Part shown: piece after piece, positions 24,001-36,000 of the stretch
Position numbering within the stretch: position 1 is the first letter of the stretch
Layout: each line of letters opens with the position of its first letter
NCBI GenBank assembly: GCA_963810935.1
Contig: CAWEPK010000008.1
Coordinates: forward strand, 767,483-831,482
Source of the DNA: an uncultured delta proteobacterium
Lineage (GTDB): Bacteria > Desulfobacterota > Syntrophorhabdia > Syntrophorhabdales > WCHB1-27
Direction: 5' to 3'
DNA length: 64,000 bases
Made by a program: the position numbers

Positions 24001-27000
24001 GGAGCTGATATCCGGGTTCGCGCCCCTCTGCGACGAGCACAATTTTATCGGCGTCTGGCCGAGCGGCGCGAACGGACAATGGCGGACCGATATCAACAAC
24101 CCCCCCACGGATATCCAGTACTTACTGGACGTTGTCGACTATATCCGGACGATTGCGAATGTAGACAGGAGCCGGATATACATCATCGGCATCTCCGAAG
24201 GGGCACAGATGACCAACACAATGGTCTGCCAGGCCGCCGATGTCTTTGCGGCGGCAGCGCCCGACTCCTTCCCCCTGACCGAGACCATCGCTCAGTGCAG
24301 GCCCGTCAGACCGGTTTCGGTCATGGAATGGGCCGGTTACGAGGACCCCATAGTCCCGTACAACGGCGGAGGGACCCTGAATGTCCCCCCTGCCCCCCAA
24401 TCTCTCCTTGAATGGTCACAGATAATGGGCTGCACCGGCAATCCTGTCACGACCGCTCCGCCGGACGGCTCGGGGCAGGTTCAAACGTACGAGACATGCA
24501 GCGCAGGGACCGAAGTCGGACTCGGAAGCATACACGGCACCCACGGCCTTTACGCCCAGTTCAATATCCAGGAATATACCTGGGCCTACCTTACCAAGTT
24601 CACCCTGCCCCTTACCCAGGATCAGCTTAACGCGTGCCCCGGTGACCCGAGTCCGGCGTCCGGTGGGGGTGATGGAGGCGGCGGAGGGGGCGGCAGTTGT
24701 TTCATCGCGACGGCTGTCTACGGGTCTTACCTCCACCCGCACGTGGCCGTATTGAAGGACTTCAGGGACAAGCGGCTGCTGACGAATGAGCCGGGCAGGG
24801 CCTTCGTCAGGCTTTACTACCGATACTCCCCTCCCGTGGCCGCCATGATAGATAGGCGCCCCGTTCTCAGGACAGCAGCCCGAGCCGGCCTCACCCCTAT
24901 CGTTTGCGCAGTCAAGCACCCCTACGGTGCGCTGACCTTCGCAATCCTGGCGGTGGGCGCCGTGTGGATAATTCGGAAGAGGATAACAAAGCGATAAGGT
25001 GGCCGTACGGAAGCCCGAAGGACCGTGTGCCCCCTGCCGTTGATAATCGATGCCCCCTTGTTCTTCAAAGTTATTCTATGTTGACAATTGACAGTTCGTC
25101 AATACGTACATACGTTTAGAGTCAGACCCATTCTAATAGGGAGTTTCAGAAATTGATCCGACTCTCTATTTGGGCATAAGTCCTGATCGATATAACGGAA
25201 AGAACAAAACAAAGGAAACCCCCGATGTGGAGCGAGCCACTTCCGAGGGTCGGGGTGAAGCGGAGGCCTGCGAGCCGACGGGTATCGCCGGGTGGAGGTG
25301 TATGCCCGAAAAGCGCGCCGTAGCTGCTTGCCGGTCAGACGGCGGACACGACGGGCAGCATTGCTACTCCGGAGGGGCATCGCTTGAACGCTCTTGTAAC
25401 GGGCGGAACAGGATTTATTGGTAGTCACCTGGTGGACTCTCTCGTGAGCGCGAACTGGGCCGTCCGCTGCCTCGTGCGTAGAAACAGCGGCGGCGCCTCC
25501 TGGCTCCGAGGGCTCCCGATCGAGCGTTGCTCCGGGGATTGCCGTTATTCGACGTCGCTCCGGGAAGCAGTAAAGGGGGTGGATGTCATATTCCATCTGG
25601 CAGGCGCGACCAGTGCGCTCGACGCCCGAACATATTTCGAGGTTAATGCGGTTGGAACCGACAACCTTTTGAGCGCCTGTGCAGAATTCAACCCGCACGT
25701 CAAAGCGTTCGTCTACGTTTCCAGCCAGGCTGCAGCCGGTCCGAGTGCCGGAGTTGCCTGCACCGAGGCGGACCCGTGCGCTCCCGTGTCCGCCTATGGA
25801 CGCAGCAAACGGCGAGGCGAGGAGCTTGCCCTGGGAATGTCCGCAAAGATTCCCGTTGTCGTCATCCGGCCTCCCGCCGTATACGGACCGAGGGACCGGG
25901 GCCTTCTCCCATTGTTCAAGCTTCTCTCATGGGGCATTCAACCACGCCTTGCCCGAAGGGGCCAGCGCTTCAGTCTCTGTTACGTGGAGGACCTGAGTTC
26001 GCGGCCTGCTGCTTGTCGCTGAAAAGGAGGAGGCCCGAGGAGAAATTTTCTTTCTTTCCGACGGGAAGGACTACGGTTGGAAGGAAATAGGCGATGCCTT
26101 CGCCAGGGCTGCCGGACGAAGGGCGACCCGGGATTTTACGGTCCCTGAATCCTTCATCCGGACATACGCCGCCATCGCCGATATGGTCGCGACAGTAAGG
26201 CGCAGGCCGGCGCTCCTCAACAGTGACAAAGTGAAGGAAATGGTCCAGCCGGGCTGGGTTTGCGATAACGGCAAATCGAGAAGATTGCTAGGTTTTGAGC
26301 CGCGCGTGACCCTCGACGAGGGCGCCCGGCTGACTTTCGGATGGTACAAGGAGGCAAAATGGCTTTAGAAAACGCTCGGTGCACTTATTCACCAGTAGAC
26401 TTGTTCGACAAATGTGCCGGAATGAACGAGTTCGTTCGTTCGTTACGAGAGAGCGGTTGCTATTTTTTCTTCAGGAAGATCGAGTCCGCACAGGATACGG
26501 AGGTCACGATCGACGGCCGGCGGGTCATAATGGCGGGTTCCAATAATTATCTCGGCCTGGCGAGTCATCCCCGCGTCAAGGAGGCGGCTATCCGCGCTGT
26601 GGAGCGATACGGCACGGGCTGCGCGGGCTCGCGCGTCTTGAACGGCAACCTTGACATCCACGAGGAGCTGGAAAGCAAGCTGGCCAAGTTTTTCCGCAAG
26701 GAGGCAGCCCTGGTCTTTGCCGCAGGATACCAGGCGAACCTTGGCATCATTTCCGCGCTGGTCGGCAGGCAAGACAGCGCCGTCATCGACAAATACGACC
26801 ATGCGAGCATCATTGATGGATGCCGCCTTTCTTTCGGCAAGGTGAGAAAATTCGATCACAATAATATCGAGGACCTCGCCAATGTTCTCCGTAACGCAAA
26901 TAGCGGCGGCTGCCTGATTATTGTAGACGGCGTCTTCAGCATGGAGGGCGATATCGCCGACCTGCCCGCGATTACGAAACTCGCTAACGAGTGCGGGGCG

Positions 27001-33000: not shown

Positions 33001-36000
33001 TTGACCGCATCAGCTTCTACCTGCCTTTGCCGTATTTCCAGAGTGTCTTCGCTATGGACAACTCGGTGCACGAGGTCGTCGCAACTGTCAGGACGCTGGA
33101 TGATGTGCCGCGGATCAAGCAGGCGCTGGGAGAGATGGTCCGTAAGGGCCCTAACCCGGACCTCAGGGTGCTCGACTGGAAGGAACTTACGCCCGGCCTC
33201 ATGGAAGTCATCACTTTCGACCTGGTGGCCGGTCTTCTGTTTTATCTCGTCTTGATCGTCGTCGTGGCTTTCAGCATCCTCAATACCTTTTTCATGGCGA
33301 TCTTCGAGCGGAAAAGGGAATTTGGCGTCATGATGGCCCTGGGCAGCCGGCCTGCCCACATCACGAAACTCCTATCAATCGAGTCCATGATGATCATCGC
33401 CATGGGTTCGGCGGCCGGCATCATCTTCGGAATCATCGTAACGCTCTATTTTGAATCACACGGCATCACGATTCCGGGCGCGGCCGAGCTGGCCCGGCTC
33501 TATGGCGTCCCCGAGCGCATGTTTCCGAGACTCTCGTTTCTTTCTCTTGCAATCGGCTCCGGCCTTGTGGTCGCAATCAGCATTGTCACGACTGTGATCC
33601 CGGTCTTCAAGGTCCGGCGTCTCCGTCCGGTGCAGGCGATGGGGGCGTCATGAGGTTTTTCGGGCTTGCATGGCGCAACGTGTGGCGGACCCCCCGCAGG
33701 ACGCTCGTGGTCCTCATGGCCGCTACCATTGCAGTCTGGAGCATGATCGTCTCCAGTGCCCTGATGAGGGGCATCACCGATCAGATGGTCAGCAACGGGA
33801 TTGCAACGCTCACCGGTCATATTCAGATCCACGAACGGGGGTATCGGAACGATCCTGCAGTTGAAACGAGCATGAAGGACCCGGCCGCGCTGGTTAAGGC
33901 CATCGAGCCTCATCTGCCCCCCGGCGCCTTACGGGCCGACCGGGTCCGCGTCAATGCAATCGCGAGCAACGCGCGCCACTCGGAGGGGGTCACACTGGTC
34001 GGGGTCGACCCGGGCAAGGAAAAACAAATCTCGTTCATCGCGCGGTCCGTCACTTCCGGAAGCTATCTCCAACCGGACGACGGCTACAGCGTTCTGATCG
34101 GCAAAGCATTGATGGACAGGCTGGAAACCCACATCGGGCGCAAGCTGATACTGATGTCCCAGGACACGGACAAAGAGATCGCCTCGCGCGCCTTCCGCAT
34201 CTCGGGCGTTTTCAGGGCGGAGCTCGAGGCGACGGAGAGGCAGTTTGTCTTCATCACCCTTCCGGCGGCCAGGGACATGCTGAAGATGAAACAGTCTTTG
34301 TCCGAAGTCAGCGTGGTCCTGCCCGACCGGGCGAAGGTGGAGGAGACCGCGGCCGCTTTGCGCTCGGCCCTCCCTTCCGGCTACGAAGTCCATACATGGC
34401 AGGAGCTGCTGCCGCTGGCTACGGCGATGTTGAAGATGTACGAAGCGCTCATATACCTGTGGTATCTGGTCGCCTTCATTGCCATGGGCTTCGGTATTGT
34501 CAATACGATCCTCATGGCCGTGCTCGAACGCACCCGCGAGTTCGGGCTTCTGCGGGCGCTCGGGATGAGGCCCGGATGGATCGTGGAGGAGGTCTTGACG
34601 GAGTCGCTCCTGCTGCTCGTCATGGGCACGGGACTCGGGACCTGCCTGGGAATGCTTTGTGCGGCCGTCCTCTCTTATACGGGCATCGATCTTTCGATCG
34701 TGGCAGGCGGCGTAAAGACGTTCGGGCTTCCCCGCGTCATATACCCGGTCGTGCGGCTGCCGGACGTCATTCTGGCGAACGTGGTCGTCTTTGTACTCGG
34801 GCTGCTCGTCAGCGCCTATCCGGCCGTCAAAGCTTCGCGCTTCACGCCGGTGAAGGCCATGGCCCACACGTAACTTTTTGCGATGAGGAGCGTCGATGAC
34901 GATCATTGAGTGTGAAAACCTTAAGAAGACTTACCACCAGGGCACCCAGGAGATTACGGCCCTCGACGGTGTCAGCCTGGCTATCGGAAAAGGGGAGTTT
35001 CTCGCGCTGGCCGGACCCTCGGGATCGGGCAAGACCACGCTGCTCAATATCATCGGAGGACTTGACCATTCCGATGAGGGCCGGGTGGCGCTGGACGGGA
35101 CCGCCCTGAACGGCATGAGCGCCTCCGGGCTCGCCGACCTGCGCTTGCGCAAGGTGGGCTTCGTCTTTCAGGCCTTTAACCTGATTCCCGTCCTCTCTGC
35201 CCTCGAGAACGTGGAATTTGTCATGCTTCTTCAGGGGGTGCCCGCCACCGAGCGGGCGGAGAGGGCCCGGACCATCCTGGACGAAGTCGGTCTCCAGGGC
35301 ATGCACAGACGGCGGCCGGCCGAGCTATCCGGCGGCCAGCAGCAGCGGGTCGCTGTCGCCAGGGCTATCGTAGGAAACCCATCCATCGTCCTGGCCGACG
35401 AGCCGACGGCGAACCTCGATTCCAAGACCGGCGCGCGGCTGCTCGCCATAATGAAGGAAATGAACCTGCGGCGAAACATCACCTTTATTTTTTCCACCCA
35501 TGACCGAATGGTCATGGAATACGCCAGCCGCCTGGTGCGGCTAAAGGATGGGAAAATTGCTGATGAATAAATCAGAGAGCCTATTCATCAAAGCAGGGTG
35601 TATCTCACTAACGGTGGCCGCGGCGCTCCTTGCCGTCTGGCTGCCAATCGCTGCAGGTCAGGTCGCATCGGCCGAACCGTCCACAGATGAAACACTTTCC
35701 ATCCCGGCGTCTGCTAAACCGCCCGGGGAAGAGAAGTTCTTCAGGCTGAGTGGAGAGATAAAGGGCATCGGCTCGGCATCATGGCCCGGAAGCGGGACGC
35801 TGCTCCAGCCGTCGGGCGACAAGACGTACTATGACGGCCTCCTCGAAGGCCGGCTCAAGGGCCACTTTTTTTTCACCGATTGGGCGAACCTGGAGGTCCA
35901 CGATTTGATCGGAGGTACAGGCGGCGACACCAGGCAGGCCGCCATCCAAACGTCCTTCCCCCTCTACCTCAACCAGGGCGACATCCCCGGCAGCCCCAGT

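Follow-up and report, generated by a model that had tools for sequence, protein, structure and literature searches.

Relation to described systems

In Caulobacter crescentus (PMC11087976), spt, bcerS and cerR stand together on one strand; spt encodes a PLP-dependent alpha-oxoamine synthase, bcerS an acyltransferase of ~370 aa, and cerR an NAD-dependent reductase of the epimerase family. The same three enzyme types stand together in the gene row analysed here (25384-37453, + strand), which belongs to the MAG of an uncultured soil anaerobe (genome label G000); positions refer to the window, i.e., the whole stretch of 64,000 nucleotides that was analysed. Compared with Caulobacter, the Spt of the row is closer to the Sphingobacterium type, an acyl-CoA synthetase gene and an ACP gene are absent, as is any carrier-protein gene in the cluster, and the cerR ORF begins directly at the Rossmann motif. 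bcerS and cerR are assigned as orthologues of their Caulobacter counterparts on the basis of identities of 34-36% given in an earlier note on this DNA.

The earlier note had presented an acyl-ceramide as new in bacteria and the route of sphingolipid transport as unknown, and both claims are overstated. In Porphyromonas gingivalis, 3-O-acylated phosphoglycerol and phosphoethanolamine dihydroceramides are known that carry a third, ester-linked acyl chain, as proposed here; there the ester sits on the 3-hydroxy fatty acid (PMC10757044), whereas the acyl-ceramide of the present organism is a proposal from its genes. As for transport, a preprint on Caulobacter (bioRxiv 10.64898/2026.04.12.717747) reports LptF2G2, together with LptB, as a sphingolipid transporter and finds LptF2G2 deletable only without spt. 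As in our row, the ABC transporter is encoded inside the sphingolipid locus, but LptF2/LptG2 belongs to the Lpt and not to the MacB/Lol ABC family, and is backed by genetics and pull-down, while the row is known only from its genes. The authors of the preprint expect different transporters in other taxa and point to an MmpL gene that adjoins spt in Myxococcus.

The remaining genes of the row resemble two further groups of proteins. PapA5 of Mycobacterium tuberculosis (1q9j), SgcC5 (4znm) and TRI3 (3fp0) are stand-alone HxxxD enzymes of ~440 aa with a two-lobed condensation fold, which is also predicted for the two acyltransferases of the row. The pair is only 10-18% identical to these enzymes, scores below the Pfam and NCBIfam cut-offs, lacks a PKS, NRPS or carrier-protein partner nearby, and has AzeD (8s6l) as its best structural match. 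Like LolCDE-LolA and MacB type VII ABC systems, the row combines a two-permease heterodimer with a LolD-like ATPase and a periplasmic protein of the LolA superfamily. Its scores fall well short of the cut-offs for LolCE and LolD, however, and a porin-like barrel replaces the LolB-type receptor. In the putative Borrelia export system BBJ23-29 (PMC13078400), which is likewise a computational prediction, an outer-membrane barrel is combined with a LolA-like protein and a MacB-like ABC transporter. Unlike the row, that system has an Omp85-family barrel and a homodimer permease and is plasmid-borne, with no described tie to sphingolipid genes.

Gene order and ceramide genes

The genes listed in the earlier note were all found on the + strand at the positions given there, and the row is real, but it continues past 35570 with a barrel gene and a 155-aa ORF (Table 1). 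From papA to the barrel, stops and starts overlap or nearly abut (the papB stop overlaps the start of LolA_like) and the same-strand array is tight.

Table 1. Features of the gene row, with positions in the window.
Feature	Position	Strand	Basis
cerR-like NAD-dependent reductase, epimerase/dehydratase family	25384..26368	+	Pfam Epimerase E 2.9e-34
spt, serine palmitoyltransferase-like alpha-oxoamine synthase	26341..27574	+	Pfam Aminotran_1_2 E 8.7e-55
bcerS-like N-acyltransferase, ~372 aa	27597..28714	+	homologue family; split into ORFs of 215 + 160 aa
Hairpin-rich dispersed intergenic repeat, REP/MITE-like	28719..28883		in 231-bp bcerS-papA gap
papA, stand-alone condensation-domain (PapA5-like) HxxxD acyltransferase, 438 aa	28946..30262	+	weak Pfam Condensation E 0.0075, PapA_C E 0.0083
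papB, papA paralogue, 445 aa	30273..31610	+	PapA_C E 1.6e-6, 28.2 bits (below cut-off 30)
LolA_like, predicted periplasmic protein	31607..32419	+	PF17131 E 2.1e-46
FtsX1, MacB_PCD+FtsX permease (LolC/E-like, type VII ABC)	32424..33653	+	Pfam; TIGR02212 lolCE 100.1 bits (below cut-off 362.45)
FtsX2, second MacB_PCD+FtsX permease	33650..34873	+	Pfam; TIGR02212 123.8 bits (below cut-off 362.45)
ABC ATPase, LolD/MacB-type	34896..35570	+	PF00005 E 4.5e-34
Outer-membrane beta-barrel, porin/AlgE/OccK-like, 465 aa	35548..36946	+	predicted from AlphaFold2 + Foldseek
orf155, 155 aa, weak FabA-like (hotdog) match	36986..37453	+	FabA E 0.0092, below cut-off

The best PDB relatives of Spt are the Sphingobacterium SPT structures 3a2b/8guh (427 bits, E 6e-127), while the highest-scoring KBL/BioF chain reaches 282 bits. 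The top NCBIfam match of the orthologue in G007, a relative from another genus, is serine palmitoyltransferase NF047600 (524.6 bits, below the cut-off of 640). For bcerS, which is a single-copy gene in G000, 1610 homologues were found at E<=1e-10, mostly of 374 aa and named N-acetyltransferase or GNAT at the source; the bCerS relative P0122 has a weak GNAT match in the PDB.

The gap between bcerS and papA holds a repeat with 111 blastn matches in G000, including ~165-bp copies of 83-91% identity on contigs C7, C16 and C1. Depth in the bin 28753-29169 is 16-47 (~5 elsewhere), and joints and loose ends are numerous there. The row may be co-transcribed, but the repeat-bearing gap could separate two transcription units.

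Proposed function

Together, CerR, Spt and bCerS would constitute the bacterial pathway to (dihydro)ceramide. Our preferred reading, which we hold tentatively and with a little less than even confidence, is a composite, lineage-specific operon for a modified sphingolipid that the two acyltransferases would acylate and the cassette may export. The two HxxxD enzymes, presumably cytoplasmic, would most likely add one or two more acyl groups to a sphingolipid intermediate. The free 1-hydroxyl is our preferred guess for the O-acylated position, with acyl-CoA or acyl-ACP as donor. In relatives with another cluster type, a PAP2_3 family gene, probably a head-group transferase, is found behind spt. 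Since tblastn gave no match to this gene in G000, the ceramide 1-hydroxyl would be unmodified and open to acylation. CerR is periplasmic in Caulobacter (PMC11087976), and if the same applies here, the 3-hydroxyl would be out of reach of a cytoplasmic enzyme. The LolC/E-like heterodimer, LolD-like ATPase, periplasmic LolA_like carrier and porin-like barrel would be an envelope export unit that already existed before it came to stand beside spt in this lineage, and that may deliver the product to the outer membrane.

Putative transport cassette

LolA_like, the sole PF17131 match in the G000 genome, has a signal peptide without a lipobox cysteine, as read from the sequence by eye, and matches 4z48 (E 2.5e-17) and the LolA-superfamily protein 3buu in the PDB. 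FtsX1 and FtsX2 are 26-27% identical, and the top NCBIfam match of the ATPase is LolD (TIGR02211, 232.5 bits, below the cut-off of 307.75). The barrel has no match in Pfam or NCBIfam; in its AlphaFold2 model (pLDDT 78) beta strands are predominant, and Foldseek matches it to MOMP (5ldt), chitoporin (7vtz), OccK1 (2qtk) and AlgE (3rbh) with E about 1e-10. Its orthologue is a single ORF of 465 aa in the relative G012 and of 462 aa in G007. The small protein behind the barrel is conserved in G012 (98.7% identity) and G007 (76%), is found at this place only in these two genomes and G000, and has no counterpart in 20 module loci of other families.

The cassette is an autonomous five-gene unit (LolA-like/FtsX/FtsX/ABC/barrel), complete in 18 of its 20 best relatives from other families and cut by contig ends in the other two. 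The DNA fetched around these 20 relatives contained no cerR, spt, bcerS or pap gene. In the phylum sample, 71 genomes bear the module; 60 of them lack an Spt match at E<=1e-100, and the other 11 carry Spt match and module on different contigs; by our arithmetic ~13 overlaps are expected by chance, so that no association of cassette and Spt is seen at the genome level. The two adjoin only in three related genomes; in addition, one metagenome contig has pap and a remnant of bcerS in the midst of module genes. Of the 22 genomes of the family, 3 have the cassette; they are exactly those with this spt type, and the cassette adjoins spt in each.

An alternative, which we regard as somewhat unlikely, is that only the Pap enzymes act on a sphingolipid, and that the cassette is a general exporter of other hydrophobic cargo (for instance a toxic compound, lipoproteins or a different lipid) and adjoins spt through shared inheritance or as part of an island. 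The free-standing relatives and the chance-level overlap favour this, as does a phage-type integrase 2.7 kb upstream of cerR in G007, because of which the linkage in the three family genomes may represent a single event, possibly a transferred island. Against it, the cassette has stayed directly behind spt in two genera, at 75-86% identity, while the intervening genes changed, and on the metagenome contig L150 pap and the bcerS remnant occur among the cassette genes in a different arrangement. In G007, the cassette directly follows cerR-spt, and genes for a ketoacyl synthase and an SDR come just after it, as does another bCerS-like gene, which places the cassette inside a block of lipid-synthesis genes. 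Furthermore, canonical LolCE is encoded elsewhere in G000, so the LolC/E-like copy of the row is an accessory one. Dedicated sphingolipid export by a Lol-like shuttle of the cluster's own, as proposed in the earlier note, is weakly supported.

Acyltransferase pair

PapA and PapB are 66% identical over 433 aa and share the motif SHEAAD, in which His140 and Asp144 (PapB numbering) are invariant in 34/34 aligned sequences (alignment A1, PapA being row P0003). The AlphaFold2 model of PapB (pLDDT 91) has the condensation-domain/PapA5 fold, with Foldseek matches, all of probability 1.0, to AzeD, the CDA C1 domain (4jn5/5dua), PapA5 (rank 11), TRI3 and SgcC5.

PapA and PapB fall into a subclade of 18 rows (bootstrap 100/99). 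In about seven assemblies besides this one, its members have spt and/or bcerS as neighbours; for five of these, the linkage is deduced from equal size and source of the contigs. In G012, members adjoin spt and/or bcerS, and on the metagenome contigs L150 and L151 pap adjoins a bcerS remnant together with the module genes FtsX2, ABC and barrel. For the other five, identical bp size and source suggest co-location of P0002 and P0008 with Spt P0243 (81%; 257375-bp contig), P0005 and P0009 with Spt P0244 (81%) and bCerS P0122 (78%; 24335 bp), P0010 with Spt P0247 (76%; 11734 bp), P0016 with Spt P0250 (76%; 4058 bp), and P0361 with bCerS P0123 (78%; 3200 bp). This recurrence contradicts the earlier concern that the pair might be a one-off, recent insertion. 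The wider family also has members in archaea, Firmicutes and Chloroflexi where sphingolipid genes are absent, and among 73 genome loci (including archaea, Firmicutes, Chloroflexota and Actinomycetota) only one had spt, cerR or bcerS nearby, and no conserved partner gene was found.

It is conceivable, but in our view rather improbable, that the pair acts on a non-sphingolipid acceptor, such as a fatty alcohol or diol, a hydroxy fatty acid, an amino lipid or a small metabolite, and that it adjoins bcerS owing to an acyl donor common to both or to carriage on a mobile cassette. We would not expect archaea and Gram-positive bacteria, in which family members occur, to make sphingolipids. The neighbours of the wider family vary (SDR in 14/73 loci, methyltransferases, hydrolases and an AAT-like gene), PapB has a weak match to the WS/DGAT family (TIGR02946, E 6.7e-5), and in L150 pap is intact while the adjoining bcerS is a remnant. 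The subclade member L152 sits behind amidase and hydrolase genes. These points are opposed by the linkage to spt or bcerS, which is seen in all three branches of the subclade, and sphingolipid acylation by PapA and PapB is plausible from this genomic context.

Reading frames

Four genes are frameshifted in the MAG. The earlier note had reported a broken bcerS, which is correct for the assembly, but cerR, spt and the barrel gene are affected likewise, and the cause is assembly error. One extra base at 25995 splits cerR, whose frames join at ~25995, and is absent from contigs of the metagenome runs X1-X3; orthologues of 57-74% identity in relatives are intact in a single frame. In spt, two bases are lacking towards the 3' end; X1 and X4 supply these as C behind 27461 and T behind 27477. 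In bcerS, the missing C behind 28232 is supplied by X1, X3 and X4, and the extra base at 36277 that splits the barrel gene into orf343 and orf186 is absent in X1-X4. Each indel was checked by hand and restores the frame, and because this applies to all four sites in short-read contigs of four runs, the frameshifts are assembly errors and the genes are not pseudogenes. Decay of the ceramide genes with loss of sphingolipid synthesis might be suspected from three frameshifted genes in 3.3 kb (compared with three split among 46 orthologues, 64 kb coding, elsewhere) and from the even more numerous frame changes of cerR, spt, bcerS, papA and papB in G012, but is largely refuted and very improbable given the restored frames, break sites that differ between G000 and G012, the absence of in-frame stops, and 77-100% identity of the two genomes over aligned cerR, spt and bcerS segments.

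The row offers candidate genes, open to experiment, for the modification and movement of sphingolipids in some bacteria.

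Gene order and genomic setting

The genes around cerR, spt and bcerS (Table) were arranged from the ORF listing together with Pfam matches, in a MAG (G000) of 21 contigs that is 93% complete and 7% contaminated. Protein searches place Syntrophorhabdaceae closest to it among named relatives. From papA onward, the stops and starts of neighbouring genes overlap or are at most 40 bases apart, and the row ends at a convergent DctM gene. When the row was scanned for promoters and terminators, the counts were close to the shuffled expectation, and the gap between bcerS and papA was without any match.

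Genes of the row, with positions counted from the start of the window
Feature	Position or length	Strand	Source
cerR-like reductase	25384–26368	+	ORF listing, Pfam
spt	26341–27574	+	ORF listing, Pfam
bcerS-like acyltransferase	27597–28714	+	ORF listing
bcerS–papA gap	231 bp		
papA	28946–30262	+	ORF listing, Pfam
papB	30273–31610	+	ORF listing, Pfam
LolA_like	31607–32419	+	ORF listing, Pfam
MacB_PCD+FtsX permease 1	32424–33653	+	ORF listing, Pfam
MacB_PCD+FtsX permease 2	33650–34873	+	ORF listing, Pfam
ABC ATPase	34896–35570	+	ORF listing, Pfam
Barrel gene, split in two by assembly	35548–36946	+	
155-aa ORF	36986–37453	+	

The bcerS–papA gap contains a hairpin-rich dispersed repeat (28719–28883) with 111 blastn matches across G000, including copies of about 165 bp and 83–91% identity on contigs C7, C16 and C1, and metagenome contigs accumulate and break at this position. 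The product of the gene upstream of cerR (23720–24997, +) is a PHB-depolymerase-like esterase that bears a CFI-box-CTERM domain, and the C-terminal 100 residues of the esterase are found again at five other sites in G000. The esterase gene retains its place upstream of cerR in G012, a family member of the same genus, and not in the family relative G007. Elsewhere in the window, an IS-type integrase (rve with HTH_21; 57793–58617, +) lies amid genes for fatty-acid beta-oxidation and of benzoyl-CoA type.

Integrity of the reading frames

The earlier note described bcerS as frameshifted, which is true of the assembly, but cerR (frame change near 25995), spt (near 27470) and the gene after the ATPase are broken as well. 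The last of these, the barrel gene, is a single ORF in G012 (465 aa) and G007 (462 aa), and two ORFs in G000. For a background rate, the ORFs of G007 were compared with G000 over 46 orthologues outside the cluster, comprising 64 kb of coding sequence; three of these are split, which amounts to about 0.05 breaks per kb, against three broken ceramide genes in 3.3 kb. Because the rate in the ceramide genes exceeds the background, decay was first suspected.

Logan contigs from four soil-metagenome runs of one study (X1–X4) were compared with the assembly over positions 25000–37500. The runs appear to be short-read, judging by remnants of adapters on some of the contig ends. They may include the source sample of the MAG, and they provide an independent sequence reading but not a second organism. 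One base at 25995 is absent in contigs of X1–X3, and one at 36277 in contigs of X1–X4, which restores the frames of cerR and the barrel gene, respectively. In spt, the frame is restored by an extra C behind 27461 and a T behind 27477 (X1 and X4), and in bcerS by an extra C behind 28232 (X1, X3 and X4). The frames of the ceramide trio are thus intact when read from the short-read contigs, and since the frame is corrected at all four sites, a pseudogene reading of cerR, spt, bcerS and the barrel gene was rejected. G012 has still more frame changes in cerR, spt, bcerS, papA and papB, and their different positions also point to consensus errors. The apparent pseudogenes are therefore errors in a MAG assembly of long-read style, and this bears on how the gene content of G000 is read.

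Other genes in the window appear likewise split or truncated, at 7220–9656 (−), 40994–42097 (−) and 766–2466 (+). They are a heavy-metal P-type ATPase in two overlapping ORFs, an AMP-binding enzyme without its C-terminal domain and a shortened molybdopterin-binding subunit, and are probably further assembly indel errors.

Ceramide-synthesis genes

CerR, Spt and bCerS are predicted to be the core enzymes producing ceramide, and each is encoded by a single-copy gene in G000. Spt is a PLP-dependent alpha-oxoamine synthase whose closest solved relatives are the Sphingobacterium SPTs (PDB codes 3a2b and 8guh, 427 bits); other alpha-oxoamine synthases in the PDB score far lower, with 282.6 bits for the best KBL/BioF chain and 254 bits for cysteate-C-fatty acyltransferase, which places the protein nearer to proven SPTs than to any of these. 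For the intact G007 orthologue (79% identical), the best-scoring NCBIfam model is the one for SPT (NF047600), at 524.6 bits and under the cut-off of 640. The cerR-like gene encodes a reductase of the NAD-dependent epimerase/dehydratase family (Pfam Epimerase, E 2.9e-34), and lies directly upstream of spt, overlapping it, in G000 and in eight of the nine spt loci fetched from relatives. Neither Pfam nor NCBIfam has a model that matches the bcerS-like protein. Its 1610 homologues, most of them 374 aa long, are named N-acetyltransferase or GNAT at source, and a PDB search with its relative P0122 gave a weak match to GNAT (E 0.0021). Sphingolipid genes have been reported in MAGs of anaerobic Desulfobacterota (PMC11334938), and our literature search returned nothing linking Syntrophorhabdus with sphingolipids.

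Seven members of the family, G018, G011, G015, G020, G002, G006 and G017 (loci L102–L108), have a sphingolipid cluster of a second type, with the order cerR-spt-PAP2_3-DUF4833-ACP-ketoacyl synthase-metallo-beta-lactamase. The Spt encoded there shares about 70% identity with that of the window. Searches with the window bcerS and the bCerS-like gene of G007 found no bCerS-like gene within 10 kb in L102–L108, and the PAP2 gene of this second cluster has no tblastn match in G000.

The paired acyltransferases

PapA and PapB are 66% identical, and both carry the motif SHEAAD, in which the HxxxD residues H140 and D144 are invariant in all 34 aligned family members; a second motif, LDAEPVLGCRF, is nearly invariant in the same alignment. 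The PapB model (pLDDT 91) shows a two-lobed, CAT-like condensation fold, and Foldseek matches it with probability 1.0 to the condensation domains 4jn5 and 5dua, AzeD (8s6l), PapA5 (1q9j), TRI3 and SgcC5, with TM scores of 0.62–0.75 for 8s6l, 4jn5, 5dua and 1q9j. The family cut-offs are not reached by PapA_C (PF16911; 28.2 and 16 bits, cut-off 30), Condensation (PF00668; 15.4 bits, cut-off 30.6) or the NCBIfam PapA5 model NF006787 (22–24 bits, cut-off 396). With the folds matched but the cut-offs missed, we place the pair in the superfamily and outside PapA5 proper. Known stand-alone members of the condensation fold, such as PapA5 and WS/DGAT, mostly O-acylate lipid alcohols, and PapB also weakly matches WS/DGAT. 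PP-binding, PKS and NRPS domains are absent from the ORFs scanned between 20919 and 38835, and likewise from two small ORFs that lie in the gap before cerR. Neither PapA nor PapB has a signal peptide, and both are therefore read as cytoplasmic.

The evidence for a connection with ceramide genes comes from a tree of the 22 best database matches and two metagenome copies, in which 18 rows form a subclade (support 100/99) with three branches, all of them showing linkage to spt or bcerS. The first branch comprises Syntrophorhabdaceae-like paired copies, including those of G000 and G012, the only two of the 22 family genomes with the pair. In the same branch, P0002 and P0008 share a 257375-bp contig with the Spt P0243 (81%), P0005 and P0009 a 24335-bp contig with the Spt P0244 (81%) and the bCerS P0122 (78%), and P0361 a 3200-bp contig with the bCerS P0123. 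The second branch pairs P0010 with the Spt P0247 on an 11734-bp contig, and the third P0016 with the Spt P0250 on a 4058-bp contig. Outside G000, G012 and the metagenome contigs L150 and L151, these pairings are inferred from equal contig size and the same source, a method that was confirmed for P0014, the pap gene of L150 (5988 bp), which also belongs to the third branch. The gene order of L150 (1–5988) and of its near-copy L151 was read from the DNA itself. A truncated bcerS is followed by an intact pap gene, and the opposite strand around these two bears FtsX2, the ABC ATPase, a complete barrel gene and, next to them, a C-terminal remnant of the barrel (56 residues). In the complete barrel gene of L150, SH3 and Big_2 domains extend the N-terminus. 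In the subclade member L152, pap follows an amidase and a hydrolase, and the contig stops inside pap.

The linkage does not extend across the wider family. A relative is present at 73 loci from species-representative genomes, with hosts that include Heimdallarchaeota, Methanocellaceae, Bathyarchaeia, Syntrophomonas, Chloroflexota, Actinomycetota and Myxococcota. Of these loci, that of G012 (L001) alone has any of spt, cerR, bcerS and the LolA module near pap. Clustering of the neighbours in these loci gave generic or clade-specific families only, with no conserved partner for the family as a whole, no carrier protein and, L001 excepted, no sphingolipid gene; the neighbours are SDR proteins (14 loci) and histidine kinases, and in Syntrophomonas-type loci methyltransferases, hydrolases and an AAT-like gene. 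In a phylum sample of 401 genomes, pap occurs in eight others, none of them above 37% identity and none within the subclade. The link to ceramide genes proposed for the pair is supported in part, within the subclade and not across the whole family. In our literature search, nothing connected PapA5-like enzymes with ceramide, the sole co-mention of 'PapA5' and 'ceramide' being in a conference abstract book.

The putative exporter cassette

Downstream of the pair, LolA_like, the two permeases, the ATPase and the barrel gene form a five-gene cassette. Both permeases match PF12704 and PF02687 and the ATPase matches PF00005, as in MacB-type (type VII) ABC systems. The three proteins are most like LolC/E and LolD, though far under the cut-offs (lolCE model, 100.1 and 123.8 bits, cut-off 362.45; LolD model, 232.5 bits, cut-off 307.75), and the canonical LolCE of G000 is encoded on contig C3 (380.8 bits). 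LolA_like, a putative carrier judged by sequence, passes the cut-off of PF17131 (158.3 bits, cut-off 30) and matches the LolA-superfamily structures 4z48 (E 2.5e-17) and 3buu (E 3.5e-10) in the PDB. The barrel protein, which has a signal peptide and an aromatic residue at its end, belongs to no family of Pfam or NCBIfam. A model built on the G012 copy with 16 relatives shows a large, porin-like beta-barrel (pLDDT 78) with MOMP, chitoporin, OccK and AlgE as best structural matches. A protein atlas search returned only unnamed clusters; a weak and distant lead was DUF1302, which 41% of one cluster's members carry.

Within the family, the cassette is present only in G000, G012 and G007, the three genomes with this type of spt (79–95% identical), and it always lies directly downstream of spt, with bcerS and pap intervening in G000. 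In G007, cerR-spt abuts LolA_like with neither bcerS nor pap in between, and just past the cassette come genes for a ketoacyl synthase, an SDR and a divergent bCerS-like protein; the G000 and G007 types of bCerS share 26–31% identity. A phage-type integrase and a DUF2971 gene are found just upstream of this block (L101, G007:C25, 3076–4278, −), which may thus be part of a mobile island.

Outside the family, the cassette is mostly seen without these companions. All five genes are present in the same order in 18 of the 20 best loci from other families, the remaining two being cut by contig ends, and in the flanking DNA retrieved, at most about 10 kb per side, cerR, spt, bcerS and pap are absent from all 20; no neighbour beyond the five genes is common to more than six of them. 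In the phylum sample, LolA_like is matched in 72 of 401 genomes and Spt (E ≤ 1e-100) in 74. Spt is present in 11 of the 71 other module-bearing genomes, always on a different contig from the cassette, and co-occurrence at genome level is not enriched. The seven closest LolA-like matches are all in Spt-bearing genomes, but since they come from two families alone, they were not counted as support. The claim that the cluster has a Lol-like shuttle of its own is weakly supported, and a cassette so widespread without spt cannot have a sphingolipid as its general cargo. Quite apart from its cargo, the cassette is an uncharacterised system of wide distribution. We offer its role as the transporter of the locus as a hypothesis, based on one lineage and one rearranged contig, and consider the acyltransferase subclade the better-supported half of the proposal.

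Possible function of the locus

By analogy with related acyltransferases, the pap enzymes may acylate ceramide, and we favour the 1-O position. In Caulobacter, Spt and bCerS are reported to be cytoplasmic and CerR periplasmic (PMC11087976); if the same layout holds in G000, the 1-OH would be the hydroxyl reachable in the cytoplasm. It is also the site that a PAP2 head-group transferase would presumably take in the second cluster of the family. The cassette, with its Lol-like parts and barrel, could extract such a lipid and move it on towards the outer membrane. In its fullest form, which we regard as unlikely, the scheme has the pap enzymes convert ceramide into a three-chain lipid (long-chain base, N-acyl chain and O-acyl chain) similar to the triacyl anchor that lipoproteins carry. 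An accessory LolCDE-like pump would then extract this lipid and transfer it to LolA_like, for delivery through the porin-like barrel to the outer membrane.

An acyl-ceramide would not be new in bacteria, contrary to the earlier note, since O-acylated dihydroceramides are described from P. gingivalis (PMC10757044). As to transport, the only sphingolipid transporter yet reported is an Lpt-type one of Caulobacter; its authors mention that an MmpL gene adjoins spt in Myxococcus, and they expect taxa to differ in the route (bioRxiv 10.64898/2026.04.12.717747). An export set predicted in Borrelia resembles the cassette described here in combining MacB-like and LolA-like proteins with a barrel (PMC13078400).

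The modification of bacterial sphingolipids and their delivery to the outer membrane are only beginning to be worked out. The locus offers an HxxxD acyltransferase subclade whose occurrence goes with spt and bcerS and which could account for acylated ceramides, and a compact, envelope-spanning cassette of five genes as a candidate lipid exporter. If the scheme in its fullest form is true, the pap enzymes would be the first assigned to ceramide O-acylation in bacteria, and the cassette would provide a second, Lpt-independent sphingolipid route to the bacterial surface.
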